A DNA stretch of 50,803 nt, from NCBI GenBank assembly GCA_011364975.1, contig RDOE01000017.1, positions 1-50,803 of the forward strand, given 5' to 3'. Position numbers and translations under genes: made by a program. Shown here piece by piece: positions 1-50,054 of this stretch; positions within the stretch are counted from its first letter, which is position 1; each line of letters starts with the position of its first letter. The notes under the pieces were generated by a model. It had not been told where the DNA came from. It was given only the letters and a program-made list of their open reading frames with translations, and did no database searches. This DNA is from Promethearchaeota archaeon (GTDB lineage: Archaea; Asgardarchaeota; Lokiarchaeia; Sigyniarchaeales; SOKP01).

Positions 1-66
1 ATCGCTAAAATAATCCTCGTCAGTTTCTTCTCCCTCGTCATCCATAACCTTGTTTGCTTCACTCAT
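1..66 (-). CDS. 5' end of an unidentified gene running off the left edge (MSEANKVMDDEGEETDEDYFSD...)
   Basis: ATG at 66-64, open frame to the window edge, AT-rich upstream region. Confidence 0.6.
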   Translation of the reverse strand, partial: MSEANKVMDDEGEETDEDYFSD

Positions 67-273
67 GACCTTTCAGTTTAAATATTATATAGCTTGTATT
101 AAATAACACAAAAGAAATATATAAAGATTCCACAGATTAATAGCGCTGAAAAAAAAATCTACCGACTATTTCTACTTGGTATTCTCTCTCTTGTAACAAT
201 TCTTATAAAAGCAAAAAACTAAAGAAATCCTAAAATCAAATCTAAATTTTTAATATGCTTTTTCAAAGGAATT

Positions 274-537
274 TTCATTGAAATCAGACTTTGAATTTAC
301 CTTCCCATAAATTTTAGTGGAATAAAAAAAATACTTAAAATTAGTCCCATAAATTTGAAGGTTCAAGTATATTTGGATAATAAGGTCTTAAAAATATTTA
401 TTCATCTAATTAAGTGCATTATTAAATCATATTTTAACTTAAAGGATTAAAAGTCTATAATAAACATTATACGAATTATTGGTATATAATAAAAATTATT
501 CATGGAAATCAGATTTTGAATTTACATTTCCCTAAAA
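274..537 (+). repeat. Two imperfect ~38-bp direct repeats (274-311 and 499-537)
   Basis: ttcattgaaatcagactttgaatttaccttcccataaa vs ttcatggaaatcagattttgaatttacatttccctaaaa. Confidence 0.7.
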
Positions 538-8867: not shown

Positions 8868-9767
8868 TTATAACTTAAAATATTCTAAAGCTTTCTTCGC
8901 TACAATATTGCCCCATTCCTGCACAAAATGGCCTGCTTCTTTAAGTCTTAAGGGCTTAGAGCATCTAGGAATAAAACTTCTTAAAATCTTCATTATTGGA
9001 GGCCCTAATACTGGATCTTGCATACCAATTGCCATAAATGCGTCACCAGACCATTCATTTTTAAACCAGTCTCTTGCTTTTCTTGAAATATCTGCACCGG
9101 GAGCATTAAGTTCCGTAGGTACTAAGTTTGGAAATCTTCTTATACCTGCTTTAAAAGTAACGTCCGGAAATGGCGCATCATAAACTTTTACTTCTTCTTT
9201 AGTAAGATTAGGAATAGCACGTATCATTAGCTTCCCCACATCCATGTCTGGTGTTCTATTTACCCAGTCACGAAATGATTTAAAACCCTGTGAAATTTCA
9301 TAATCTCCTGTTCCTAAGGCAGTATTCATAAGAATCAATCGAGAGAATCGATTAGGCATCTCCATTGGCAATGTCAATCCTAGTAATCCTCCCCAATCCT
9401 GACATACTAATATGATATTCGAACTATCAATATAATTAAGAAATGAAATGAGGGAGTTTCGATGAAATTCGAAGGTATAAACTTCGTCTTTTATTGGTTT
9501 ATCTGAGCGACCAAATCCAAAAAAGTCCGGAGCAATTACTCTATAACCCGCTTCTAAGAAAATGGGTATCATTTTACGATATAAATAACTCCAAGTTGGC
9601 TGTCCGTGTAAACATAAAAATGTACATTCTGCCTTTTTAGGACCCTCATCGATATAATGTAATCGTAAATTTTCAAATCCTCTTAGATTCTCAATATAGT
9701 GTGGGGAATATGGAAAATCTATTAAATTATTGAATCGTTCATCAGGTGTTCTTACCATTTCTATCAT
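8868..9767 (-). CDS. Haloalkane dehalogenase (alpha/beta hydrolase)
   Basis: RTPDERF N-terminus, HGQPTWSYLYRKMIP, QDWGG nucleophile, AGHFVQE. Confidence 0.9.
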   Translation of the reverse strand: MIEMVRTPDERFNNLIDFPYSPHYIENLRGFENLRLHYIDEGPKKAECTFLCLHGQPTWSYLYRKMIPIFLEAGYRVIAPDFFGFGRSDKPIKDEVYTFEFHRNSLISFLNYIDSSNIILVCQDWGGLLGLTLPMEMPNRFSRLILMNTALGTGDYEISQGFKSFRDWVNRTPDMDVGKLMIRAIPNLTKEEVKVYDAPFPDVTFKAGIRRFPNLVPTELNAPGADISRKARDWFKNEWSGDAFMAIGMQDPVLGPPIMKILRSFIPRCSKPLRLKEAGHFVQEWGNIVAKKALEYFKL

Positions 9768-9859
9768 AATGCGTAATAACCAAATTCATTCACTAATAAT
9801 ATTTGAGATCTTCTTATGAGCATTAAAAAAAATTAAGAACTAGATAAAAAATACTATTT

Positions 9860-10747
9860 TTATTTAAGACTATATTTTTCTAATAACGCGTTAAGCCGTG
9901 AACGATGGAACTTTAAACCCAACTCATCAGAAGTAAAACCAAATGCTAAAGCCATTAATTCAGTTAAATATAAAATTGGTACATTGAACTCAGTTCCTCC
10001 TTGTGTGCTTGCTTTTTTTTGATTAGTATCCATTTGTTGAAAGCAAGCTGGACAAATTACTACAAATGCTTCAGCACCTGCTTTTAAACCACTGTTGAAT
10101 TTATTAGATAAAATCATCATTGAAGGTTCTTCCTCAGCATTACCCACTCCAGAGCCACAACAAAGCATTTCTTCTTCATAATCTACAGGTGTAGCTCCGG
10201 TAGCTGCAACTAATTCTCTTAATTTAACAGGTTTCATAGGATCATCCGTTTGCATAACCTCGGAAGGTCGATTATAATGACATCCCGTATGACACGCCAC
10301 TTTGAGACCAGATAGATCATGTTTAATATGCTCCTTTATTTTATCCGCACCCAATTCATAAAGTACTTCAACAAAATGTTTAACATTGATAGTTCCTTTG
10401 AATTCTCTCTTTAAATCCTTTAATATAAGATTAATTTTGTTTCTTTCATGATCATCATGCTTCAACTCATGATTTACCGCTTTTAATGTTTGAAAACATC
10501 CATTACAAAGAGATACTATATCTTTTCCTTCATCCTCCGCAAGTGTTAAATTCCTCGCTCCCATTGCTAACCAGCTAGTATGATCTACTGAATTAAAGCC
10601 TACAGGATCTGGACAGCATGCGAATGGTGCTTCAGTGGTTGTTATCCCAAGAGTCTCAAACACTTTTCTTGCTGATGCTTCGATAAAAGGTATTCTGTTT
10701 CCAATCGTACAGCCTTGAAACATCTTATATTCTTCAACTTTCGCCAT
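9860..10747 (-). CDS. hdrB: Heterodisulfide reductase subunit B
   Basis: FQGC, CCP, CNGC, HTGCH, CCG, CPAC motifs of two CCG domains. Confidence 0.92.
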   Translation of the reverse strand: MAKVEEYKMFQGCTIGNRIPFIEASARKVFETLGITTTEAPFACCPDPVGFNSVDHTSWLAMGARNLTLAEDEGKDIVSLCNGCFQTLKAVNHELKHDDHERNKINLILKDLKREFKGTINVKHFVEVLYELGADKIKEHIKHDLSGLKVACHTGCHYNRPSEVMQTDDPMKPVKLRELVAATGATPVDYEEEMLCCGSGVGNAEEEPSMMILSNKFNSGLKAGAEAFVVICPACFQQMDTNQKKASTQGGTEFNVPILYLTELMALAFGFTSDELGLKFHRSRLNALLEKYSLK

Positions 10748-15459: not shown

Positions 15460-16269
15460 TTATGGTATGATTCTTTCTGGATGTGTGTAAATATTCATTT
15501 TAGCGCCTCTTGCAAAACCAATTAATGTAATACCATAATCTTCCGCTAAACTTATTCCCGTATCAATCGCTGCTGATAATGATGCTACAATCGGAATGTT
15601 TGCTCTAATTGCCTTCAATACAGAATCTCCAGTGAGTCTGCCAGTTGTAGCTAAAAATTTATTATGAAAATTCTCCTGCTTTAGTAATATATCACCAATT
15701 ACTTTATCAATAGCATTGTGTCTCCCAATATCTTCTTTTATAGCTAAAAGACTCCCTTCTTCATTAAAAATTGCTGCTCCATGACAGCCACCAGTAGCTC
15801 GAAATAATTCTGTTTCTTTTTGCATTTTTACGATACTATCTAAAATGATTCTAGATTTAATTACTAATTTAAATTCTGAAGATAATTCCTCCTTAGACGC
15901 TATTAATGCTTCCTTAATTATAGTTCGCCATGGTGATGGTATTCCACAACTCGTATCGATAACTCTACTCACCGGATTCAATTCAAAATTTTTAAAGAGG
16001 TTAAGTTTCGAATCTATAAGGGTAATATCTATTCTTTCTTCTTGCTCTTTTATTAGTATTTCTTTTACTTCTTTGATATTATCAATCAACCCAACAGAAT
16101 AGATGAAACCCAGAGCTAATTCTTTTAAATCTTTGGGAAGACATACAATATTCACTAAAGGGTTGAGATTGATGAATAGATCGATTGCTTTTTCCACAAG
16201 AACTAAATCAGTTTCCTCAAATTTTTTATCTTTTTTAATTCGAGTAATCTTTACTGAGCGTTTATACAA
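15460..16269 (-). CDS. fdhD: Formate dehydrogenase accessory sulfurtransferase FdhD
   Basis: TSCG, FRATGGCHGAA, EDIGRHNAIDKVIG, TLIGFARG. Confidence 0.92.
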   Translation of the reverse strand: MYKRSVKITRIKKDKKFEETDLVLVEKAIDLFINLNPLVNIVCLPKDLKELALGFIYSVGLIDNIKEVKEILIKEQEERIDITLIDSKLNLFKNFELNPVSRVIDTSCGIPSPWRTIIKEALIASKEELSSEFKLVIKSRIILDSIVKMQKETELFRATGGCHGAAIFNEEGSLLAIKEDIGRHNAIDKVIGDILLKQENFHNKFLATTGRLTGDSVLKAIRANIPIVASLSAAIDTGISLAEDYGITLIGFARGAKMNIYTHPERIIP

Positions 16270-16360
16270 TTCAAATCATCTTCTAAACAAAATAAATTTA
16301 GTAATAAGCTTATCTTAATAATTAGTTATAAAAATAGATGATAATAAAATAAATAAAATT

Positions 16361-17170
16361 TTAGACTGCGATATAGATCCTTCCGTTTGTTTCTTTGTTA
16401 ACCGAATGATCTCCACTATATTCTATAAATTTACCTACAATTTTTTCTCCGTTGGGAAGTTCTACTTCATCCACTTGACCCATTTTCTTATAAGATGGGA
16501 GAATTCTTGAAATCTTACCTTTAATTACAATAGTTCCCCATGCCTGATCTGCACCTGTGCATCGATCAACATCACCTTCTACAACTATAGTCCCTCCATG
16601 ATTATGAATCCCTAAAAAAGCACCCGCGCTACCACAATATAAGGTAGGCCATTTATTCGAAGGTTTTGAGCTTTTTGCCCATAGCATAGATTCATTACCC
16701 ACTTTACCTTTCACTCGAATTATTCCACTTTTCATTCCTTGCCAAAATCCTCTATAAGCGGATCCTATATAATGTCCTGCGTCGCCATTAATTATAAGTT
16801 CACCTCCTTCCATCATAGCACCCGCCCAGTCGTCAGCATTTCCATTTACTGTAATCTTACCCCCTTTCATTTGATTCCCCACATGCATACCAACATCGCT
16901 ATTAATAATGATTTCTCCTCCAGTCATATTTTCACCAACCCTTTTAACTCGTGAGACATCGCCATCTATGATAATAGTAGTTTCTTTCAAATCTGTTGAT
17001 TTGCCTGAAACGTCAAAAAAGTCTCCTAATTTAACTAAATCTTTACCATGATAAATCTCTAATTTTTTAATTTCGGCAGCAGTTTTACCTACGAAATTAT
17101 CAGGTGTTATTGAATCAACTTCTAATGGAAAGCTGGGCTTTTTTTTTAATTTTAATTTTATTTCTGCCAT
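16361..17170 (-). CDS. fwdC: Formylmethanofuran dehydrogenase subunit C
   Basis: Gly-rich beta-helix repeats (MxGGxIxxxG), GSAYRG, LGDFFDVSG. Confidence 0.92.
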   Translation of the reverse strand: MAEIKLKLKKKPSFPLEVDSITPDNFVGKTAAEIKKLEIYHGKDLVKLGDFFDVSGKSTDLKETTIIIDGDVSRVKRVGENMTGGEIIINSDVGMHVGNQMKGGKITVNGNADDWAGAMMEGGELIINGDAGHYIGSAYRGFWQGMKSGIIRVKGKVGNESMLWAKSSKPSNKWPTLYCGSAGAFLGIHNHGGTIVVEGDVDRCTGADQAWGTIVIKGKISRILPSYKKMGQVDEVELPNGEKIVGKFIEYSGDHSVNKETNGRIYIAV

Positions 17171-17172
17171 CT

Positions 17173-18501
17173 CTAATCCCCTAATTTTTGTTTTACTTTT
17201 TCGATTAAACGCTCTAAAATCTCTTTATCAGACAAACATTCTCCAGGAGCATCCTTTACCTTTCTTAATCTTATTGGAACTTTATCCATACGATAGGCAG
17301 TACCTTCACATTCTATTCCTGCAAATGCAGCAGGCAGTATCACATCCGCAAAGGCTGATGTAGGAGTTTCATGTGGTTCTATCGAAATTAATGGATGTTT
17401 AAACATATTTTTTACAGAAGCTGCTGGAAAATTACTTGCTGGATCAGAAGCAACTATTAATGACGCATCAACTTCATCTTTCATCAAAAGATCAACAGAG
17501 GAGAATTCTCCTGGATTATATCTTGCATATCCTCTTGAAAAATCAATAGAATAAGCATAGCCTGTATTCCAAGTAAATACTTGGTTAGCTCCTGCAACAT
17601 TATAATGACCTCGCATAGGACATAAGAGAAACTTAGTATAATCATTCAATTCTCGAACCAAACATATTGCCGTATCAATATTACGATGATGAGCTAACGT
17701 TTGAGTTAATCCCATTCCAAAGAAAATTACTCCAAATTTTGCTTCTTTAAGAATTTTAACTAATTCTTGGATTTGTTCTTTAGAAACACCAGAAACTTCT
17801 TTTTCATCGATTTCTGTTCCTCTTAATGTTGCTCTTATTGCGTTTAATAGCTCATAATCCTCATTTGGATTAACTTTTATATATAAATCTGCAATTTGAG
17901 CCGTATGAGTGTTTCTCGGATCTACAACTATTATAAATCTATCATTTCGGCCATCGGTTCGAAAATATCCTCGTACAAATTCACTGTATCTTCCCAGATG
18001 TCTTGGATGAGCATGAACAGGATTACTCCCCCAAAAAATAACTAAATCCGCACGATTCTTATATTCACCTAGAGTAGATAATGGGGCACCTACATCTTGA
18101 ATTGCTAATAGTGATGGACCATGACATACAGACGCGGTATTATCTAATATAGCTCCTAAGATTTCAGCCAATTCAACACCCCTACTCTGGGCATCACATT
18201 CGGTGCTTGAAAAGCCATATAATAATGGTCGTTTTGCTTTAATTAAAATGTCCGCAGCCTTATCTAAGGCTTCATCCCATGAGACTTCCTTATAAGAACC
18301 ATTATCCTTTATTCTTGGTTTAAGGTACCGATGTGATCCAGGATTAGAAGAAAAAAACTTTTTAGTTCCGATCTGGCAACTATTACGCATTTCTATAACT
18401 TTATTTTCTTTAACGTCAATATCAACTTCCAAATCATCGCATAAAGTTCCGCAAAATGGGCAAACTACATCATATAAGGTCTTTATTTTCTTTTCTACCA
18501 T
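17173..18501 (-). CDS. fwdB: Formylmethanofuran dehydrogenase subunit B (W/Mo-pterin, Cys form)
   Basis: CPFCGTLCDDL, ASVCHGPS, NPVHAHPRH, MRGHYNV, GTAYRMD. Confidence 0.95.
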   Translation of the reverse strand: MVEKKIKTLYDVVCPFCGTLCDDLEVDIDVKENKVIEMRNSCQIGTKKFFSSNPGSHRYLKPRIKDNGSYKEVSWDEALDKAADILIKAKRPLLYGFSSTECDAQSRGVELAEILGAILDNTASVCHGPSLLAIQDVGAPLSTLGEYKNRADLVIFWGSNPVHAHPRHLGRYSEFVRGYFRTDGRNDRFIIVVDPRNTHTAQIADLYIKVNPNEDYELLNAIRATLRGTEIDEKEVSGVSKEQIQELVKILKEAKFGVIFFGMGLTQTLAHHRNIDTAICLVRELNDYTKFLLCPMRGHYNVAGANQVFTWNTGYAYSIDFSRGYARYNPGEFSSVDLLMKDEVDASLIVASDPASNFPAASVKNMFKHPLISIEPHETPTSAFADVILPAAFAGIECEGTAYRMDKVPIRLRKVKDAPGECLSDKEILERLIEKVKQKLGD

Positions 18502-18505
18502 ACTT

Positions 18506-18901
18506 TTATGCCTCCTTGAGTTGTCTTATTAAATCTAATGCATCTAGCACCTTCCCATTTTTAAGGACTTCTACTTTCGCTTTCATTCCTTTAAAGGTAG
18601 GGGTACCAGTTCCCTGAGTTGAGGGATTAACTACTTGATTACTCCATGGCCCCATTGGAATGAATATTATTCCAGGATGAGGCCCCTCTTCTGATATAGT
18701 AGAATATACTATTACTTCTCCAAACGCTGTTGAAACTTTTACAGGAGTTCCTGCTAAGCAATCAAGCTTTTTAAAATCATCTTTATCAAAAGCACATATT
18801 GCTGCAGCTCGAACATTCTCTTTTGTGGTTTTCCCTCCTTCTAAAGCAACTCCTTGATTAATTGTTCGTCCTGTTAACAAAATTAAGTTTTCTAAACTCA
18901 T
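18506..18901 (-). CDS. fwdD: Formylmethanofuran dehydrogenase subunit D
   Basis: LLTGRTINQG, GIIFIPMGPWSN, GTGTPTFKG. Confidence 0.92.
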   Translation of the reverse strand: MSLENLILLTGRTINQGVALEGGKTTKENVRAAAICAFDKDDFKKLDCLAGTPVKVSTAFGEVIVYSTISEEGPHPGIIFIPMGPWSNQVVNPSTQGTGTPTFKGMKAKVEVLKNGKVLDALDLIRQLKEA

Positions 18902-18902
18902 T

Positions 18903-19625
18903 TTATTTATCCCCCTCTTGACTCCATCTTAAATTTTTTAATCGTTCAATTAAAGGTGGCCAAAAAAGTTCGCTAAACTCTCCTGAATATTTGACATCTT
19001 TTATTTTTAATTGTAGTGCTCCTGTAGGACATGCATTATCACATGCACCGCATGCAACACACGCATCTGGGTCAACTACTTCAACATTTTTACTCATTTC
19101 CCAACCATGTTCAGGTCTCTTTGCAATAGCAATCGTTCCTGATGGACATACTTCAGCACAAGAACCACATCCTTTTGCACATTGCTCATCAATTATTTTT
19201 ACTTCTGCTGTTGAGTATTGTTTTACAATTCGTTCAAGACCTTTAACATTTTTTATTTTTTTTGGTTTAAATTCGAGCGTTGGTACAACTTTTTGTGCTA
19301 CTAAAGGAATATCCTCAAGATTATATACTTCATCATCCTTTTTGAGTGTCAAAGCGCTAAAAGGACACATTATGACACAAGTTCCGCAAAAAACGCACTT
19401 TTTTGGATCGTATACTTCAGGAATCATTTCTTGGGTTTCAGGGAACCTTCGAGATGCACCGACTGGTCCACGGGATATAGCTTCCTTAGGACAAACTCGA
19501 GAGCATGTTCCACAACCCACACATTTTTCTCGATTAAGTATAAGTTCCAAACTTTCAGTTAAAAATTGAACCTTAACATGTTCCACTTCCGGGGTTATTT
19601 CTCTTGTTATTTTTGGAAATGACAT
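18903..19625 (-). CDS. fwdF: FwdF-like polyferredoxin (four 4Fe-4S motifs)
   Basis: Four CxxCxxCxxxCP-type motifs; start set at ATG 19625 behind GGAGGAGGT. Confidence 0.75.
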   Translation of the reverse strand: MSFPKITREITPEVEHVKVQFLTESLELILNREKCVGCGTCSRVCPKEAISRGPVGASRRFPETQEMIPEVYDPKKCVFCGTCVIMCPFSALTLKKDDEVYNLEDIPLVAQKVVPTLEFKPKKIKNVKGLERIVKQYSTAEVKIIDEQCAKGCGSCAEVCPSGTIAIAKRPEHGWEMSKNVEVVDPDACVACGACDNACPTGALQLKIKDVKYSGEFSELFWPPLIERLKNLRWSQEGDK

Positions 19626-19627
19626 TT

Positions 19628-19885
19628 TTAGACCTCCTCCACACATTCTATTTGGATAGCCCGAGCAGGGCATATTTCAATACAAACTCCACATCCATCA
19701 CAATTTACTTCTCTTCCTTCTTTATATATTGGATAAGCAACTCCATTCTTCACTAAAAGTACAGCATTTTCTTGGCTAAGATAACTATCTTTCCTTAATT
19801 GATTAAAATTTAATGGACAGCTAACCACGCAGTCATTACAGCCAAAACAGCGATTAGTATTAACTTTTAATTTATATATTTGCAT
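19628..19885 (-). CDS. fwdG: 2[4Fe-4S] ferredoxin, FwdG-like
   Basis: CFGCNDCVVSCP and CDGCGVCIEICP; inside the fwd cluster. Confidence 0.75.
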   Translation of the reverse strand: MQIYKLKVNTNRCFGCNDCVVSCPLNFNQLRKDSYLSQENAVLLVKNGVAYPIYKEGREVNCDGCGVCIEICPARAIQIECVEEV

Positions 19886-19888
19886 ACA

Positions 19889-20311
19889 TTATGCCTCCTT
19901 TTTGATAGGATTAGGACCTAACTCTTTTAGTTCTTGTACAAATTCTTCTACAATTTCAGTTAATTCGGCACCTTCCGATGCTGAAACATATGTATACTTT
20001 ACTCTTTTTGGATTAATCCCAAATTGTTTTAAATATTTATGAAGTAAGGGCAATTTTCGCATAGTTTTAAAATTACCTTCAACGTAATGACAATCACCGG
20101 GGTGGCAATGAGAAACAAGCACCCCATCTACCCCGTTTTTCAATGCATCCAAAACAAAGGTAGGTTCTATTCTACCACCACACATAACCCTCATAATTCG
20201 TAAATTTGCAGGACGTTGCATACGAGACGTACCTGCTTGATCCGCGCCAGCATACGTACACCAATTACAACATATCCCCAAAATATATGGTTTAAATTCA
20301 CTTTCCGTCAT
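19889..20311 (-). CDS. mvhD: Hydrogenase iron-sulfur subunit MvhD
   Basis: CCNWCTYAGADQAG, RVMCGGR, CHPGDCHY, SASEG. Confidence 0.93.
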   Translation of the reverse strand: MTESEFKPYILGICCNWCTYAGADQAGTSRMQRPANLRIMRVMCGGRIEPTFVLDALKNGVDGVLVSHCHPGDCHYVEGNFKTMRKLPLLHKYLKQFGINPKRVKYTYVSASEGAELTEIVEEFVQELKELGPNPIKKEA

Positions 20312-27318: not shown

Positions 27319-28602
27319 ATGAAAGATTTAAGAAAGAAATTGGAAATTCCTAAGGAAGCCTTGAAAATAGTCAATGATTTTTTACTTGATGAGAATAATC
27401 CATTAATTAATGATCTTTTGAATGTGGTAGATAAATATGGTGGTGTTGATGAGATTAATAAGAAAGCACAAGAGGCAGGTAAAATAGAGAATTTAATCGA
27501 AAAGGTTAAGAGTAAAAATCCAGATTATGTTAAGGATCTTGAATGGTTAATTGAAGCTCGTGATAGTCTTTCCTTTATAAATATAACTGATTTTAGGAAG
27601 AAAATCCTAGGCGATAAAGCATCTGGAATGAAATTTGACGAGGATTTTGCAGTTACTTTAGAACTTAGTGCTTGTCAATACTTCCCATTTTTAATTGATA
27701 TTGCCAAAGATGCTCTAGAAAATCACAAATTAGTTCCAGGACGAATTATCAGAGTAAGAAATATGAAAGAACAGGAAAGTGATGGAGATTTACCAGCCAT
27801 GGCTGCTGCTATGCAAATAATAGGGTCTTCTTGGGTTGAAACATTAGATACTAAGGGTACTGCTCCAGGACCCGATGGTTTACCTGTAAATGTGCATTTA
27901 GGAGGTCCAGATACAATTACAGGATATTTTGGGGGTGTAGGTCAACCAAATGATTTTGCATTAAAGTGGATTGATGAATTTTTATATTATTACACTAATT
28001 ATGGAATTAAACAAGTGCTTAATGTAAATCCTGGTACTGTATTATTAGGATACTTTATTTACAAGTTAGGGATTAATAATGAATTTAAAATTTCAGTATA
28101 CATGGGAAATGATAATCCTTATTCTTGCTTATGGACTTTATTAACTGCTAAATTATTTGCTCGTGAAGATGGTACTAGTCCTTTAATTGGATTTAATTTA
28201 TCAAATGCTGTTAATAATAAGACTATTAATATGGCCGCTTATATTAGAAAACCATTTGGATTTGAGGATGTTGTACGATTAGAACATCATATCACTGAAA
28301 CATGGAAAAGTATCGTACGACAGCCATATGATCGAAGAGATGAGTTGTTAGAATTGGCATCAAATGTCAAGAACATAAGTGCTAAACATGAGGGGGGAAA
28401 GGTTGATGTTGAAGAAAAAAGAGAGCATCCTACCGACATACTTGAATATTTTATGCCGAAGGAAGAGTTAAAAAAAGCAGGATTATGGGATTATCTACGT
28501 ATTAATCATCTAGATCGAAATGATGCAGTTAATTCTACAGCTGAAGCACTCACTAAAAAAGGATTAACCTTTATCGCTGCTAAAAATTTACATCATTACT
28601 AA
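27319..28602 (+). CDS. Uncharacterised enzyme-like protein (427 aa)
   Basis: Long ORF with motif-like blocks ETLDTKG, NVHLGGPDTITGYFGG, FKISVYMGNDN, RLEHH, KHEGG; 23 bp from the next gene. Confidence 0.8.
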   Translation: MKDLRKKLEIPKEALKIVNDFLLDENNPLINDLLNVVDKYGGVDEINKKAQEAGKIENLIEKVKSKNPDYVKDLEWLIEARDSLSFINITDFRKKILGDKASGMKFDEDFAVTLELSACQYFPFLIDIAKDALENHKLVPGRIIRVRNMKEQESDGDLPAMAAAMQIIGSSWVETLDTKGTAPGPDGLPVNVHLGGPDTITGYFGGVGQPNDFALKWIDEFLYYYTNYGIKQVLNVNPGTVLLGYFIYKLGINNEFKISVYMGNDNPYSCLWTLLTAKLFAREDGTSPLIGFNLSNAVNNKTINMAAYIRKPFGFEDVVRLEHHITETWKSIVRQPYDRRDELLELASNVKNISAKHEGGKVDVEEKREHPTDILEYFMPKEELKKAGLWDYLRINHLDRNDAVNSTAEALTKKGLTFIAAKNLHHY

Positions 28603-28625
28603 TGAAATAACGAGGGATAAATAAA

Positions 28626-30113
28626 ATGAGTAAATTTGATTTTAGACCAAGCGGAGTAATGCCAGCAATGGTTACCCCGTTTAATAAAGATGAGTCGATT
28701 AATGAAGAACAATTGAGAAATTTAGTCAATCATTTTATTGAACAAGGAGTAACAGGATTAGTCCCTTGTGGAACAACGGGAGAGTTCGTTAATATGACTT
28801 TTGAGGAACGGTTAAAAGTTATTGAAATCGTAGTTGATGAAACTAATGGTAGAGTACCAGTAATAGCTGGTACGGGAGAAACAGGAACAAAATTAGTTAT
28901 TGATGCTAGTAAAGCCGCAACTGATTTAGGGGCAGATGCTGTTATCATTGTCACGCCTTATTATTTAAAGCCTAAAGCTAAAGGTTTATATGATCATTAT
29001 TTCACCATAGCTGAGCAAACAGATATCCCAATTGTCCTATATAATATTCCTGTGTGCACTGGAGTGGAATTACCATGGACCGTAGTAGAGGATTTAGTTG
29101 ATATCGAAAATATAGTTGCAATTAAAGATTCTAGCGGTGATTATAAATATCACTCCGCATTATTAGAAAAGGTTAGCGATAAAATTTCAGTTCTAATAGG
29201 ATGGGATGAATTAGTATTAGGTTCACTAGCCGGGGGTTCAGCAGGTTGTATTTTAGGCTCTGCAAATGTTATTCCCCACATTTGGTTAGAAATATATAAC
29301 CATGTTAAGAATAATCGGTTAAAAGAAGCTCAAGCACTTCAAAAAAGCGTTCAAAAACTTGCAAGGATGCTCATTAATTCTGGTGCTTTAGGCGCAAAGG
29401 AATGTTTAAATATGATGGGCATTCCTGTAGGAATTACAAGACAACCAATAATTCTTGGAGATGCGCTTTCATATGAATTAAGAGATGAATTTCGAGTAGA
29501 ATTGGAGAAACTTGGGCTTATAAAAAAGAAGGAGATAAAATTTGAAATTGCGGAAAAGGAACTTACCAGTCGATTTTATGCTGTTGGAGTTACCCCTGAA
29601 AAAATTTCTGACTTTGATTTAAAAGTTGGAGAATCTCTTGTTGGGGAACGAGTTGAATTAGCTCATATTGATCTTTTAATCGGAGATAAAAAAGGTCCTG
29701 TTGGAGAAGCATATGCTCGGGCTTTAACACACCCCGCAAAAGGAAGGGAAGGTTTGCAAGTTATTCTTGAGCCAAATATGCAAGTGAAACCAGCAACAAT
29801 TATGATTCCTACTGTAAAGGTAAATTCGTTACGACATGCGAGTTTAACTTATGGTCCTGCTCAAGCGGCAGTTGCTAAAGCAGTAATGCAATGTGTTGAA
29901 GATGGAATCATTCCAAAAGAGGCAGTTGAGGATTTAGTGATTATTGTAAATGTTTTTGTACATCCTAGTGCCTCAGCAAGAAAAAGGGTATTTATAAACA
30001 ACTTTAAAGCTACAAGAAATGCGATTCGTAAAGCAATAGAAGGATTACCCTCTGTAAATGACGCAATTGAAAATCTAGAAAACGCCCGTCATCCATTAAG
30101 AAATGATCCTTAA
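28626..30113 (+). CDS. DapA-family aldolase fused to C-terminal formaldehyde-activating enzyme (Fae) domain
   Basis: GTTGE, VTPYY, LYNIP, IKDSSG; then VGESLVG..AHIDLLIG..VKPATIMIP..GPAQAAVAKAV. Confidence 0.9.
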   Translation: MSKFDFRPSGVMPAMVTPFNKDESINEEQLRNLVNHFIEQGVTGLVPCGTTGEFVNMTFEERLKVIEIVVDETNGRVPVIAGTGETGTKLVIDASKAATDLGADAVIIVTPYYLKPKAKGLYDHYFTIAEQTDIPIVLYNIPVCTGVELPWTVVEDLVDIENIVAIKDSSGDYKYHSALLEKVSDKISVLIGWDELVLGSLAGGSAGCILGSANVIPHIWLEIYNHVKNNRLKEAQALQKSVQKLARMLINSGALGAKECLNMMGIPVGITRQPIILGDALSYELRDEFRVELEKLGLIKKKEIKFEIAEKELTSRFYAVGVTPEKISDFDLKVGESLVGERVELAHIDLLIGDKKGPVGEAYARALTHPAKGREGLQVILEPNMQVKPATIMIPTVKVNSLRHASLTYGPAQAAVAKAVMQCVEDGIIPKEAVEDLVIIVNVFVHPSASARKRVFINNFKATRNAIRKAIEGLPSVNDAIENLENARHPLRNDP

Positions 30114-30159: not shown

Positions 30160-30750
30160 TCATCCAATCTTTTTTATAATTAAATGAAATCCAAAATAGA
30201 TTAGCAACCCTCCAATTAATAACCAAAAAAACGATAATACTAAGGAATATTCTACAATCAATTGAAATAAAATGATGTATGATATTATATTGACAATTCC
30301 AATAACCATTGAGACCAGTCCCAATACTTTATTATATCTTTTTCTTGTGTTGATGTTTTTAAGATAACCTTCTGAAAGCATTAAAAATACGCCATATACT
30401 ATTATGAATAAGCCCACAAGGGCTAACGGAAATAAAATAAGAAGTCTTATATGATGAATATCAACAAGCCGGGTATCTATTAATGCAATAATGGTTGCTA
30501 AAATTGGTATTAATCCATCTATTAAAAGAATTAATCCTTTGGCTTTCATTCCTAATCTTTTTTCGAATATGGAGTATAAACCATAAAATATTGTGAAGAA
30601 ACTAAAAGCTAACAAAGGAATTGATAATATTATATAAACTGCTTTATCAGTAGTTAAATCAAAAAACATACTCCATATTGTAATACCCGAAATTACCAAA
30701 AAAATAAAACCTAAAACAACCAGAAATGGACCCAAGCTCTTTTTATCCAT
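30160..30750 (-). CDS. Hypothetical membrane protein
   Basis: About six hydrophobic helices; GGAGGT upstream. Confidence 0.7.
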   Translation of the reverse strand: MDKKSLGPFLVVLGFIFLVISGITIWSMFFDLTTDKAVYIILSIPLLAFSFFTIFYGLYSIFEKRLGMKAKGLILLIDGLIPILATIIALIDTRLVDIHHIRLLILFPLALVGLFIIVYGVFLMLSEGYLKNINTRKRYNKVLGLVSMVIGIVNIISYIILFQLIVEYSLVLSFFWLLIGGLLIYFGFHLIIKKIG

Positions 30751-42398: not shown

Positions 42399-43391
42399 AT
42401 GATTAGGAATCAATGGTACGCAGTTTTAGAATCGAGGGAGCTTCCAAAAGATAAATTAGTGGGAGTAACTCGATTAGGAGAAAACCTTATTTTTTGGAGA
42501 AACAAGAAAAGTGAAGTTATCTGTTTGAAGGATAAATGCGCTCATAGAGGTGCCAAACTTAGTATAGGAAAAATATGTGATGATGGTGAATTAATAGAAT
42601 GCCCATTTCATGGATTACGCTATGATAGAACGGGTAAATGCACAATAATCCCCGCTAACGGAAAGAATTCCATAGTACCAGAAAGGTTTAAAGTAGATAA
42701 TTATCCTACTAGAGAAGAATATGATTTCATTTGGATTTGGTGGGGTGATGAACAATTCGATTATCCTGCTCTACCATTTTTTGAGGATATTGATCGGAAA
42801 TTTTCTTATAAAACTCATGCAGAAATTTGGCCAGTTCATTATTCTAGAGCCATTGAGAATCAATTAGATGTGATTCATTTACCATTTGTACATAGTAATA
42901 CAATTGGGAGAGGTTATCAAACTCTTGTTCACGGACCATTAATAGAACCCGACAAAGAAGGAAATGGGTTTACTTTCTGGGTATACAATCAAAAGGATGA
43001 CGGTAATACTAGGCCATTAAAACCTGAAGAATTTACAGACGATATGAAAGTTTTTCACTTAAATTTCAAATTTCCTCATATCTGGCAAAACTATTTAGGA
43101 GAAAAAGTTCGTATATTCATAGCTTTTGTACCTATTGACGAGAATAACACCCAATTTTATATGAGATTCTATCAAAAGTTTATTAGGATTCCAATTCTAA
43201 AATCATTTGTAAACTGGTTAGCTAATAAATTCAATATTATTATCCTTCATCAAGATCGACGGGTTGTTGTAACACAACTACCAACTAAAACTCAATTAAA
43301 AATGAATGAGCAATTAATTCAAGGTGATAATCCTATAGTCTATTATCGTCGTCGTCGTGAGGAATTAAAAAGTTTAAAGCAATTAAAATAA
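42399..43391 (+). CDS. Rieske non-heme iron oxygenase alpha subunit (VanA/demethylase-like)
   Basis: CAHR...CPFHG Rieske motif; ENQLDVIHLPFVH and QD mononuclear Fe ligands. Confidence 0.9.
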   Translation: MIRNQWYAVLESRELPKDKLVGVTRLGENLIFWRNKKSEVICLKDKCAHRGAKLSIGKICDDGELIECPFHGLRYDRTGKCTIIPANGKNSIVPERFKVDNYPTREEYDFIWIWWGDEQFDYPALPFFEDIDRKFSYKTHAEIWPVHYSRAIENQLDVIHLPFVHSNTIGRGYQTLVHGPLIEPDKEGNGFTFWVYNQKDDGNTRPLKPEEFTDDMKVFHLNFKFPHIWQNYLGEKVRIFIAFVPIDENNTQFYMRFYQKFIRIPILKSFVNWLANKFNIIILHQDRRVVVTQLPTKTQLKMNEQLIQGDNPIVYYRRRREELKSLKQLK

Positions 43392-46935: not shown

Positions 46936-48810
46936 TTATATCCCATCCAATTCTTGAAAAGCCCAACCTATTCCAAGTTCTTCTAGCTTAAGTTTAGTGG
47001 GGATCCCTTTATTTGTCCATCCCATCATTTCATAATAGGTAGATAAAGCATGATTTAACTTATCTTTGTCAATTGGCTTATTAGATAATACACCGGAAGA
47101 ATGTGGTTGAAAATATCTTTCTGGTAAGTGATCATCCTTTGTAGTAAATCCCTCCCTTAAATTAAAAACGCGTGCTAAATTCATGATTCTTTCTCCTACT
47201 TTCATCAATTCCCAGGTACTCATATTCCATCCAGTCGATGCATTTACAATTTCCGTATATTCAGATAAATTCCAAGGAGTAAAGTAACAAATAAGTAATG
47301 CATTACCCGTTGCTTTCCAATTCATCAGATATATAATTGCTCTTACTTTTGCTGGCCCTAAATCATCGACAGATAACGGTTCAAATATTCCAAACGGATA
47401 AAATTGAGTAACATTTCTCTCATTATCCATTGATGTATCATGTAAATTATGCATATGTTCTGCTCCCGTTGGTGATATCATATAACCTAATCCCAATCCC
47501 TGTTTAAGTCGAGGTTCATGCATGGGTATTTCTTGGCCTTTAACATGAAGAGCAAAAAGTTCAGAATTTTTTCCTATAACTTTCGCAGCTTGCTTCACAC
47601 CTTTAGCAAGAAGGTTACCTAAGCCTTTTCTCTTTGCTATGTTTTCCACCATTAAAAGCATTGCTTTGCTATTACCAAATCTTAAATCTAAACCATCTGA
47701 ATCTTTCTTAGTTAATATAGCATTTTCAAAGCATTCCATTGCAAAACTTATACTCATTCCTGTTGATATTGTATCGATTCCATACATATTGCAAAGTTCA
47801 TTCGCTTTACATATTGCTTTAAAGTCGTATATTCCACAATTTGAGCCAAAAGCAGCAATAGTTTCATATTCTGGTCCTCCATATTTTGGATCGACAAGCC
47901 ATGGATCATCAAAAGCTACTACTTTTTTACACATAATTGGGCATGCATAACAACTTTCCATGTTAAGGTTAACAATTTCTTTTACTATTTGAGGATCGAT
48001 ATTTTTAGCAGATGGTGAACCAGCATCCCTAAAATTATTAGTAGGAAGATTTCCTGTTGATGCAAATAGTTCCATCATTCCTCCTCCAGTTCCATGAGTA
48101 AAATATCCTTTATATGGCTTCAAATAATACTTATTGAATCGTTCTCTTAATTCTTTAATTTTATCTTTATTAGCAATATGATTTTCTTGTCGCCCTTTAA
48201 CAACAATCGCTTTAAGATTCTTCGAACCCATTACTGCCCCCATACCAGATCTACCAGCAGCGTTACGAAGATCATTTATTATACAAGCATAATTTACTAA
48301 ATTTTCTCCTCCTGGCCCTATCTGAGCGATATGAATATATTTGTCCCTTAATTCTGATTGGATAATTTCTTGGGAATTGCCTGTAGTTTCTCCCCATATC
48401 GATGAAGCATCCTTAAATTCTACGTTAAGATCATGAATCCAAAGATAAATTGGCTCTTTTGATTTTCCTTCAATAATTAATGCATCGTAACCGGCTCGTT
48501 TTAATTCGGGACCCCAATAACCTCCTACTTCAGCTTCTCCGAATCCGTTCGTTAATGGTGATTTAGCCCCTACAGAATTTCTTCCTGTCCCTGATAAAGG
48601 TATACCCGTTGCTGGACCAACAGCAAAAATCAATTTATTCTCAGGTCCAAGAGGGTCTATTCCCTTCCTTAATTCTTTTAGAAGGTAATAAGCGGTGATA
48701 CCTTCTCCACCTAGATATAATCGATAAAATAATTCTTCAGGTTCCTCAACTGAGGTTGTTTGATTAGACAGATTTACTCTTAATATTCGATATTGATATC
48801 CAAACTTCAT
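46936..48810 (-). CDS. aor: Aldehyde:ferredoxin oxidoreductase (tungsten AOR family)
   Basis: KSPLT, AGRSGMGAVMGSKNLKA, CYACPIMC, GPEYET, GIDTIS. Confidence 0.93.
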   Translation of the reverse strand: MKFGYQYRILRVNLSNQTTSVEEPEELFYRLYLGGEGITAYYLLKELRKGIDPLGPENKLIFAVGPATGIPLSGTGRNSVGAKSPLTNGFGEAEVGGYWGPELKRAGYDALIIEGKSKEPIYLWIHDLNVEFKDASSIWGETTGNSQEIIQSELRDKYIHIAQIGPGGENLVNYACIINDLRNAAGRSGMGAVMGSKNLKAIVVKGRQENHIANKDKIKELRERFNKYYLKPYKGYFTHGTGGGMMELFASTGNLPTNNFRDAGSPSAKNIDPQIVKEIVNLNMESCYACPIMCKKVVAFDDPWLVDPKYGGPEYETIAAFGSNCGIYDFKAICKANELCNMYGIDTISTGMSISFAMECFENAILTKKDSDGLDLRFGNSKAMLLMVENIAKRKGLGNLLAKGVKQAAKVIGKNSELFALHVKGQEIPMHEPRLKQGLGLGYMISPTGAEHMHNLHDTSMDNERNVTQFYPFGIFEPLSVDDLGPAKVRAIIYLMNWKATGNALLICYFTPWNLSEYTEIVNASTGWNMSTWELMKVGERIMNLARVFNLREGFTTKDDHLPERYFQPHSSGVLSNKPIDKDKLNHALSTYYEMMGWTNKGIPTKLKLEELGIGWAFQELDGI

Positions 48811-48878: not shown

Positions 48879-50054
48879 TTATTGTATATTTAAAGCTTTA
48901 AGTAATTTTTCGACTTTTTTAATATCTTTTAGATTATTATAATAATTAAAGGCGAATCTCAATAATTTATCCTCCTTATCTTCAGGATACCTTTTAGGTG
49001 TAATATAAATCTTGTTTTTTATAAATATTTCATAGATTTTTGAACAATTTTGATGTTCAATCGTGATTATGCCAGATCTGTTTATTATGTTTAATGGAGT
49101 AATAATTTTTAAATCTAAGGGTTCTATACATTTTAGAAATTCACTTGTGAGCCATAGAATTCTAGATTGAATTCGAGTAACACCCTTTTTTATATCCCCT
49201 TCTCCAATAACGTTTTTAATTAAATCGAAACATCCTTTAAGAGAAATTAGTGCGCCAAAATTGGGGCACCCTCCAAAGCCATCCATAGAACGAGTCTTAT
49301 TTATAATGTTCATATTTTCATTATTTAATTGGAAAGCATTTTCAACGCTCAACCATCCTGATATTGGAATTACATTTTCATTAAAGAACTCATCCTTTAT
49401 ATAAAGAATACCTGCACCATAGCCACAACCTGGCCATTTTAAGCCATTACTCACCAACATATCTATTTTTTGTTTTTTAACATCGAGTTCAAAGCTACTA
49501 AATCCTTGCGTAGCATTTACTATGTGATATAGATTATTCTTTTGACAAAAATTACCCACTTCCTCCAAATTTTGTCTAAATCCTGTCAATGATTGGATAT
49601 ATGAATTGATAACATACTTTGTATTAGGCGAAAGGCTTTTTTCATAATTCTCGATTAAATAACTATTATTGTTATCAAATATCTTCTTACATATAAAGCC
49701 TTTTCTTTTAAAGCTGTGAATAGAAGCAGGAAATTCAATTGAGGGATAAATAATTCCACCAGCATTATCTAATGAATTTGCTATAATATTCATTCCAGAG
49801 GTTGTATTAATTAAGAATGCTATTTCATCTGGTTTAGCATTAATATAATTAGCAACAATGCTTCGCAACCTTTCAAGCTCTTCATTGAAATCATCATAAT
49901 GAATATCACCATATTTTAGCATATCATTATAAAACCACAACACCTTTTTGTAAGCTTCTTTATTTAAAGGAGATGCTGACGCAGCCATAATGTAAGTTAA
50001 ATGCCTTAGAGCTGGAAAATAATTTTTTCTAATTTTTTCCCAATCAACCGCCAT
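48879..50054 (-). CDS. Class V PLP-dependent enzyme
   Basis: NTTSG, EFPA, NATQ, SNGLKW PLP lysine, LRFAFNYYN. Confidence 0.85.
   Translation of the reverse strand: MAVDWEKIRKNYFPALRHLTYIMAASASPLNKEAYKKVLWFYNDMLKYGDIHYDDFNEELERLRSIVANYINAKPDEIAFLINTTSGMNIIANSLDNAGGIIYPSIEFPASIHSFKRKGFICKKIFDNNNSYLIENYEKSLSPNTKYVINSYIQSLTGFRQNLEEVGNFCQKNNLYHIVNATQGFSSFELDVKKQKIDMLVSNGLKWPGCGYGAGILYIKDEFFNENVIPISGWLSVENAFQLNNENMNIINKTRSMDGFGGCPNFGALISLKGCFDLIKNVIGEGDIKKGVTRIQSRILWLTSEFLKCIEPLDLKIITPLNIINRSGIITIEHQNCSKIYEIFIKNKIYITPKRYPEDKEDKLLRFAFNYYNNLKDIKKVEKLLKALNIQ

Follow-up and report, generated by a model that had tools for sequence, protein, structure and literature searches.

A DHDPS-family aldolase fused to a formaldehyde-activating enzyme in Asgard archaea: annotated as DapA, possibly a link between pyruvate and the methanopterin C1 pool

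What does a gene named for lysine biosynthesis do when its product ends in a formaldehyde-activating enzyme (Fae)? The question is raised by a forward-strand gene on contig RDOE01000017.1 of Promethearchaeota archaeon (assembly GCA_011364975.1), of which positions 1 to 50,803 were analyzed; this whole stretch of 50,803 nucleotides, with a G+C content of about 31%, is referred to as the window. The gene joins an aldolase of the DHDPS/NAL family to a C-terminal Fae domain. An initial annotation, made from the letters of the DNA, had proposed that the fusion is not a lysine-pathway enzyme and that it exchanges formaldehyde with tetrahydromethanopterin (H4MPT) metabolism. On the sequence comparisons described here, the gene is mis-annotated as DapA and encodes a real, conserved enzyme with two predicted functions. 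Its positions and those of the surrounding features are given in Table 1.

The aldolase runs into Fae without a stop, as had been noticed initially, and the single frame of 495 residues matches both PF00701 (E 4.3e-77, 259.1 bits against a cut-off of 22.1, profile positions 2-272 of 289) and PF08714 (E 1.1e-56, 192 bits). The Pfam envelope of the Fae domain begins at nt 29625, close to the start of about 29616 that had been estimated by eye. This domain also matches the equivalog-domain model TIGR03126 over its whole length (190.3 bits, cut-off 118.05, profile positions 2-160 of 160) and spans the solved Fae 1Y5Y end to end (chain 6-165 of 169, E 9.7e-32). The 1Y5Y sequence is present as 10 chains in two entries. 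As Fae forms pentamers and DHDPS enzymes form dimers or tetramers, the fusion may assemble in an uncommon way. The solved structures closest to the N-terminal half are DHDPS enzymes, with 2yxg matched at E 2.6e-52. The aldolase motifs are GTTGEF (residues 49-54), TPYY (residues 110-113), YNIPVCTG (residues 139-146), and AIKDSSG, which carries the Schiff-base Lys167 (nt 29124-29126). Lys167, Tyr139, GTTGEF, and TPYY match the corresponding residues of solved DHDPS in the alignment, and the equivalents of the triad are Tyr139, Thr50/51, and Tyr113; the catalytic roles of these Lys, Tyr, and Thr residues are presumably those assigned in E. coli DHDPS. In the Fae domain, AHIDLLIG stands opposite AHIDLIIG of 1Y5Y and carries His347-x-Asp349, a pair that we take to be functional in Fae. 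The Lys and Tyr motifs and the Fae His, all read as intact in the initial annotation, are so in both alignments.

The motifs YNIPxC, KDSSG, AH[IV]D, GWDE, and GTTGEF are kept in 121/121 sequences, comprising the query and its 120 closest clusters at 90% identity. Because of this conservation, chance read-through is excluded, and by its sequence the fusion is a conserved gene. The 120 best homologues are each about 495 residues long, contain both Pfam domains, and are 83-91% identical. A survey of 301 Asgard genomes that were at least 80% complete, with a match threshold of E <= 1e-90, found the fusion in 151, so the architecture is not absent from related genomes, an outcome that would have told against the initial proposal. 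In contigs taken from one genome per species, 98 stretches contained a relative of the fusion, and the best 80 loci were compared; three of these 80 are labeled Bathyarchaeota and are 57-58% identical. The family is also found on metagenome contigs of higher G+C content. In a library of representatives at 50% identity, 13 full-length two-domain clusters were present among the best 150 matches, and these clusters, together with a Bathyarchaeota copy and the organism's own DapA, were used for an alignment of diverse sequences that includes 15 fusions. In this alignment the length of the linker is constant among the close fusions.

The name DapA is nevertheless understandable. The fusion passes the equivalog cut-off of TIGR00674 (238.6 against 206.15 bits), its best solved matches are DHDPS enzymes, and every named homologue, from metagenome-assembled genomes of Promethearchaeota, Hodarchaeota, Heimdallarchaeota, and Thorarchaeota, is labeled "4-hydroxy-tetrahydrodipicolinate synthase." The gene could on these grounds be a second genuine DapA that merely bears Fae. 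The active site and the genome both speak against this. The HMMER alignment places "lynipvctg" of the fusion opposite "lynvpsrta" of 2yxg, with Cys144 (nt 29055-29057) in place of Arg, as the initial annotation had pointed out; this Arg is presumably Arg138 in E. coli numbering, which we take to bind the carboxylate of aspartate semialdehyde. The position is Cys in 121/121 close homologues and is never Arg in the 15 diverse fusions, which have C, V, L, or A. A separate canonical dapA, which the initial annotation had recommended looking for, is present elsewhere in the same genome (3.74 Mb, 99.25% complete): it encodes 299 residues, retains the Arg in YNVPGRTG, scores 335.6 bits with TIGR00674, and is followed directly by dapB (268.7 bits) on contig C138. 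No dapB-like neighbor was found in the 80 fusion loci, in a comparison that covered only 10 window genes, and the gene contexts of the fusion are unrelated to lysine. We therefore regard a second DapA as very improbable. The genome also encodes a third DHDPS-like protein (L003 178-2229, minus strand), in which a weak match to DHDPS (65.6 bits) covers the N-terminal 243 of 683 residues.

The genome contains the machinery that a working Fae domain would serve. Mch (365 bits) and a separate gene for Fae-Hps (537 bits) are present, and FwdB (609 bits), FwdC (255 bits), and FwdD are encoded inside the window. Because canonical dapA, Fae-Hps, Mch, and Fwd are all separate in the genome, the fusion is counted, from its sequence, as an extra paralogue in an H4MPT-using organism and not as the cell's DapA. 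The initial annotation had linked the fusion to an H4MPT/Fwd pathway encoded nearby. The presence of these genes is consistent with such a link, with the reservation that the Fwd cluster, which represents the H4MPT/methanofuran entry step, is 9 kb from the fusion and on the other strand.

Which reaction would such an enzyme catalyze? The reading that we favor, with a probability of about 45%, is that the fusion carries out 4-hydroxy-2-oxobutanoate (HOB) + H4MPT <-> pyruvate + 5,10-methylene-H4MPT + H2O and that this is step two in a module of two genes, with cleavage as the slightly favored direction. Lys167 of the N-terminal aldolase would form a Schiff base with a 2-oxo acid, most likely HOB, which would be cleaved to pyruvate and formaldehyde, and the fused Fae would condense the released formaldehyde with H4MPT. 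The net reaction would be the H4MPT counterpart of the PanB-type reaction on folate, and its physiological direction would be catabolic, with the C1 unit passing into the H4MPT branch. HOB is proposed because it is the only 2-oxo acid expected to yield formaldehyde through a pyruvate-type Schiff-base aldolase and because it is also the keto acid of homoserine. The first step would belong to the product of the gene directly upstream, an orphan that the initial annotation had overlooked and that may make or otherwise act on a 4-substituted 2-oxo acid by, for example, hydration, dehydration, or elimination at C4. Candidate reactions are the hydration of 2-oxobut-3-enoate, the removal of a thiol from 4-(methyl)thio-2-oxobutanoate, and the dehydration of a tetronate.

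The short spacer and its GAGGG motif suggest that this partner gene and the fusion are on one transcript. The partner has no sequence match in Pfam, NCBIfam, or the PDB, and a search of the ESM Atlas gave no usable match. Its AF2 model is an alpha/beta barrel (pLDDT 72, pTM 0.79) for which Foldseek found no match at E <= 0.001, and VIA returned a flat list of TIM barrels (Z 9.6-11.4), among them class II FBP aldolase, MTHFR, DUF849, and mutase barrels; neither Peptidase U32 nor the class II aldolase-like barrels, both considered as relatives, stood out from the other TIM barrels. In 76 of the 80 loci, the gene directly before the fusion is a partner homologue; three of the four exceptions are short of upstream DNA, and the fourth (L081) has another gene there. 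In two Bathyarchaeota loci the partner is adjacent to the fusion but divergent. The partner is present in 182 of the 301 Asgard genomes. Four metatranscriptome contig sets, searched at 80% likeness, gave no match on the fusion gene and four short pieces (46-67 bases), from other organisms, on the partner gene. In family f2, the partner match contains one in-frame TAA in four of five genomes (G196, G264, G081, and G085), which could mark a pseudogene, result from recoding, or arise at the edge of the alignment. The partner was also considered as a missing homoserine kinase and rejected: canonical ThrB is absent from 285 of the 301 genomes, among them 108 of the 119 that lack the partner, and there is no complementarity.

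Away from the fusion, the partner keeps company that bears on its substrate. In families f25, f9, and f26, all nine loci examined have an operon in which the partner is followed by a class I aminotransferase, a homoserine dehydrogenase, and an AOR-family gene. The aminotransferase has 387 residues, and its highest-ranking NCBIfam rows, AspAT-like and GntC-like, all fall below cut-off; the homoserine dehydrogenase matches NF004912 (431 bits against a cut-off of 373), and a PatB-type C-S lyase (475 bits against 340) is next in three of the nine operons. The fusion was not found, with P0001 as query, in five of five genomes with operons of this type. The aminotransferase and homoserine dehydrogenase beside the partner point to the interconversion of homoserine and HOB. 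In family f11, the partner follows the S component of an ECF transporter and is divergent to a threonine synthase-PadR fusion, of which the one tested (L105) reaches 318.6 bits (cut-off 303). Coordinates indicate the same arrangement in another 17 f11 genomes, where a ThrC frame of about 500 residues is located within 2.6 kb of the partner on the opposite strand. The threonine synthase-PadR protein (L105 4715-6193, minus strand; also L106, L107, and, by coordinates, f11 genomes) could be an enzyme that was converted into a regulator responding to a ligand. Genome G196 has a Fae-less DHDPS-like gene (348 residues, PF00701 55.8 bits) directly before the partner. In P0391 (759 residues), a divergent DHDPS-like domain is joined to a partner domain that is 54% identical over 99% of the partner; this fusion comes from a single contig and may be an artefact.

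P0391 was used to seed a metagenome scan that gave 80 loci of 32-67% G+C, 71 of them with a called partner open reading frame (ORF), and neighbors were grouped by BLAST clustering. The largest neighbor cluster, a family of about 284 residues found in 21 of the 71 loci, is mostly directly upstream on the same strand, and the one member tested matches solved PanB (E 3.5e-69). DHDPS-family genes are beside the partner in 18 loci. Twelve of these genes are stand-alone, with 301-324 residues, neither Fae nor the Arg, and the motifs YNIPLFA[TP] and AMKDSSG, and the rest are tandem aldolase-Fae-like pairs. AOR is found in 12 loci, adjoining the stand-alone aldolase, an FGGY-type kinase in eight (for example L148 6595-7962, plus strand), and glutamine synthetase in seven. 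A divergent neighbor family of about 303 residues had no match in a sequence search of the PDB. The position of the FGGY-like gene, with the PanB-like gene on one side and the partner on the other, hints at a phosphorylated intermediate in those bacteria. In L145 (4978-8202, plus strand) and L147, on a contig of 65% G+C, the partner domain forms residues 658-1073 of a 1074-residue frame; the roughly 650 preceding residues belong to a frame without a sequence match in the PDB, and it may be a further fusion or an over-extended start in GC-rich DNA.

Three kinds of enzyme thus recur around the partner: those of 2-oxo acids and amino acids (aminotransferase, DHDPS-type aldolases, and PanB), those of the homoserine node (homoserine dehydrogenase and threonine synthase), and those that handle aldehydes or C1 units (the fused Fae, AOR by the Fae-less aldolase, and PanB with folate). 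These contexts tie the module to the homoserine/HOB node and to pterin-dependent hydroxymethyl transfer, and the simplest intermediate common to them would be a 4-hydroxy-2-oxo acid. An aldehyde-disposal enzyme accompanies the aldolase, since either Fae is fused to it or, in 12 loci, AOR is beside the Fae-less form. Because the aldolases are paired with such enzymes, cleavage is slightly favored as the direction. The initial annotation had spoken of a C1 entry route, which presumes synthesis; the route itself is retained here as the chief competing view, and the contexts, in which Fae-less aldolases are next to AOR, lean slightly the other way.

The same chemistry run in reverse would use methylene-H4MPT from the methyl branch of the Wood-Ljungdahl pathway and pyruvate to make HOB, which would be transaminated to homoserine, giving threonine and methionine a route independent of homoserine dehydrogenase (Hom). 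Such a route would be the natural equivalent of the Hal and Hat segment of the synthetic homoserine cycle, and it is the main rival of the cleavage reading, although we consider it unlikely. The organism's own genome has no PF00742 homoserine dehydrogenase, which is present in 14 of 14 control genomes, and has kept a threonine synthase (554 bits against a cut-off of 303). Across the Asgard survey, Hom is found in 28 of the 151 genomes with the fusion and in 100 of the 150 without it, and ThrC-like genes are near universal (273/301). The pattern is sharpest by family: the fusion is present in 66 and Hom in 3 of the 71 genomes of f11, and in 8 and 0 of the 9 genomes of f29, whereas f25 (0 and 16 of 19) and f9 (0 and 21 of 27) show the opposite. 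According to the accessible text of PMC8879981, an HOB aldolase and an HOB aminotransferase together give homoserine in engineered E. coli. The anticorrelation of the fusion and Hom is, however, mostly between families and is confounded by kinship. Within the organism's own genus, Hom is also present in 12 of 27 fusion carriers, and there it travels with a second, higher-scoring ThrC, the two being lost together as judged by coordinates, which resembles plain pathway loss. Canonical ThrB is present in only 16 of the 301 genomes, regardless of module status, synthesis leaves no obvious job for the partner, and AOR beside the Fae-less aldolases suits the release of an aldehyde. A broader form, in which Asgard archaea and Bathyarchaeota run a natural counterpart of the homoserine cycle that replaces homoserine dehydrogenase, with the orphan barrel performing an undescribed C4 elimination or addition on a keto acid, appears to us a shade less likely again.

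The PanB-like neighbors raise another possibility, that the fusion is an H4MPT-dependent hydroxymethyltransferase on a different 2-oxo acid, converting 2-oxoisovalerate to ketopantoate for coenzyme A in the manner of PanB, or acting on 2-oxobutanoate. The commonest neighbor cluster of the partner would fit, with the partner perhaps acting on ketopantoate-like products, and two methanogen control genomes have no PanB match, so that users of H4MPT may need an alternative. The organism's own genome, however, has PanB (364.5 bits), and the homoserine dehydrogenase and threonine synthase contexts indicate an unbranched C4 skeleton. In the characterized DHDPS/NAL aldolases the nucleophile is, to our knowledge, pyruvate; reaction at a tertiary C3 would be out of character for them. 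We hold this assignment to be improbable, and a simple substitution by the fusion for a missing PanB or SHMT was rejected, both being found in the genome.

Slightly less improbable is a different aldehyde altogether, such as glycolaldehyde, a semialdehyde, or a sugar, with the Fae domain serving as an oligomerization scaffold, a pterin binder, or an activator of that other aldehyde. GWDE is invariant in the 121 close homologues, the AOR genes beside the Fae-less relatives are not formaldehyde-specific, and the Fae His motif is degenerate in some of the diverse fusions. The full length of the Fae domain, its score of 190 bits against 118, and the presence of His-x-Asp in 121/121 nevertheless argue for a working Fae, and we know of no described Fae substrate other than formaldehyde.

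Several of these observations, with others, also weigh on the cleavage of HOB itself. HOB may have no claim beyond being the least complex 2-oxo acid that a pyruvate aldolase could split to formaldehyde, and the retained GWDE recalls the GxDE motif with which sialic-acid lyases presumably hold a larger aldehyde. The lack of homoserine dehydrogenase alongside a threonine synthase in the organism's own genome suits synthesis. The fusion and the partner are separable, since 128 of the 301 genomes have both, 54 the partner only, 23 the fusion only, and 96 neither. A PanB-like gene and a DHDPS-type aldolase occur together in some loci (for example L148 and L188), so the two are not simple substitutes. 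Finally, the Schiff-base Lys is lost in two of the 15 diverse fusions (P0249 and P0252), and the AH[IV]D motif of Fae is found in eight and absent from seven; because of these losses, not every member of the family is predicted to perform both reactions alone.

The variation in the family takes two further forms. In family f11, most fusion matches come in tandem. Tandem pairs of aldolase-Fae-like genes are present at L121 5706-8587, L122 5608-8519, L120 7104-10008, and L123 7303-10191, and also in the metagenome loci L141 and L157, where the Fae His motif is missing from the first copy, which has YNIPQVVD, and the second has YNIPQCAG and AHIDL. In Asgard lineages that have only the fusion, another conserved orphan of 315-329 residues is directly upstream of the fusion in four of the 10 loci examined (L116 9026-10015, L117 8813-9760, and L119 8929-9876, all minus strand, and L123 6340-7287, plus strand). 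A TIM barrel is predicted for this orphan as well, with 5d88 at Z 12.7 in an equally flat VIA list, and in its look-alike Atlas clusters 17-23% of the members carry Peptidase_U32 (PF01136). A profile-profile comparison of this orphan with the partner gave a probability of 7.5%, by which homology is not shown; in metagenome locus L195, it is encoded at 9338-10297 (plus strand), directly downstream of a partner homologue. P0264 (757 residues), an apparent long form, was excluded from the argument, as only its residues 3-254 are fusion-like and no part of it matches the partner.

In the window, the fusion gene has the partner gene and a membrane-protein gene as neighbors. The AOR-family gene of the window and the aminotransferase-like gene that it adjoins are 17 kb from the module; AOR is also a recurrent neighbor of the partner in other lineages. 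The Rieske protein resembles an oxygen-dependent demethylase, in an organism presumed to be a strict anaerobe.

Table 1. Positions in the window of the fusion gene, its parts, and other features discussed in the text
Feature	Position (nt; residues)	Strand	Basis or remark
Cluster of fdhD-like gene, then fwdC, fwdB, fwdD, and polyferredoxin (FwdF-like); MvhD-like gene adjoins	15460-19673 and 19889-20311	-	
Partner gene, 427-residue orphan enzyme-like protein	27319..28602	+	helical N-terminal region about residues 1-103, TIM barrel about residues 108-420 (AF2)
Spacer of 23 nt with GAGGG, Shine-Dalgarno-like, about 10 nt before ATG	28603..28625	+	read from sequence
Whole aldolase-Fae fusion ORF	28626..30113	+	495 residues, single frame without internal stop
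DHDPS/NAL-family class I (Schiff-base) aldolase domain	28647..29453; 8-276	+	PF00701, alignment to 2yxg
End of aldolase fold and linker	29454..29624; 277-333	+	between the two Pfam envelopes
Fae domain	29625..30098; 334-491	+	PF08714, TIGR03126, 1Y5Y alignment
T-rich tail 3' of the stop codon	30114..30159	+	candidate archaeal terminator, putative function
Next gene, convergent to the fusion	30160-30750	-	ORF list
Rieske [2Fe-2S] protein with VanA-type oxygenase C-terminal domain	42399-43391	+	
AOR-family gene	46936-48810	-	adjoins the following gene
Class V aminotransferase/cysteine-desulfurase-like gene	48879-50054	-	

The identity of this enzyme matters beyond one genome. No archaea are closer to eukaryotes than the Asgard archaea, and in reconstructions of their metabolism a gene that probably links pyruvate to the H4MPT C1 pool is counted as a lysine enzyme; the fusion is widespread and strongly conserved in them. 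It also offers a way of approaching an abundant family of orphan TIM barrels, whose genes are found beside those of PanB, homoserine dehydrogenase, and threonine synthase. If the proposed reaction is correct, the fusion would be a natural, dedicated pyruvate-formaldehyde aldolase and a ready-made part for synthetic methylotrophy; if it runs toward synthesis, it would represent an unrecognized route of C1 assimilation and a new entry into the amino acids of the aspartate family. No paper on a DHDPS-Fae fusion was found in the literature searched, which did not extend to subscription journals and supplements, and the accessible text of PMC11291895 discusses Fae-Hps and AOR of Asgard archaea and not the fusion gene.

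The fusion can be compared with five known systems. By sequence it is closest to DapA/DHDPS (TIGR00674; 2yxg), with which it shares the fold and the catalytic Lys, Tyr, and Thr motifs, but it has Cys for Arg, GWDE for GDD, an attached Fae, and no dapB context. PanB, a single-domain enzyme that uses a metal-enolate mechanism and a folate carrier, resembles it in the proposed type of net reaction, the movement of a hydroxymethyl group between a reduced pterin and C3 of a 2-oxo acid. The two are unrelated in sequence, and the fusion would reach this result with a Schiff-base aldolase and Fae, through free or channeled formaldehyde and H4MPT. In the meta-cleavage pathway of DmpG/DmpF, a hydratase makes a 4-hydroxy-2-oxo acid, the aldolase yields pyruvate and an aldehyde, and the aldehyde passes to a second activity bound to the aldolase. 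The proposed module would resemble this arrangement; the folds differ, and the aldehyde acceptor is CoA and NAD there and would be H4MPT here. RhmA of E. coli is a class II, metal-dependent aldolase. As described in the accessible text of PMC8879981, its Hal activity joins pyruvate and formaldehyde in HOB, reversibly, before transamination to homoserine; HOB, which a promiscuous aldolase supplies to the synthetic homoserine cycle, is termed there a "non-native metabolite," and the only comparable activity in that text is this promiscuous side reaction, recruited for synthetic methylotrophy in an engineered pathway. The fusion, by contrast, would be a natural enzyme of class I, dedicated to the reaction and coupled to H4MPT. 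In Fae-Hps (NF009833), Fae is likewise fused to an aldolase-type formaldehyde enzyme, so that the aldehyde need not accumulate freely, but the order is reversed, Fae being C-terminal in the fusion, and the barrel of Fae-Hps is Hps acting on ribulose 5-phosphate, whereas that of the fusion is a Lys Schiff-base DHDPS/NAL barrel predicted to act on a 2-oxo acid. The fusion is not a member of that family, as it scores 160 bits with NF009833 against a cut-off of 274 and matches only model positions 2-161 of 392, the Fae part. The fusion follows the design principle of Fae-Hps with an aldolase of another class and, most likely, a different natural reaction.

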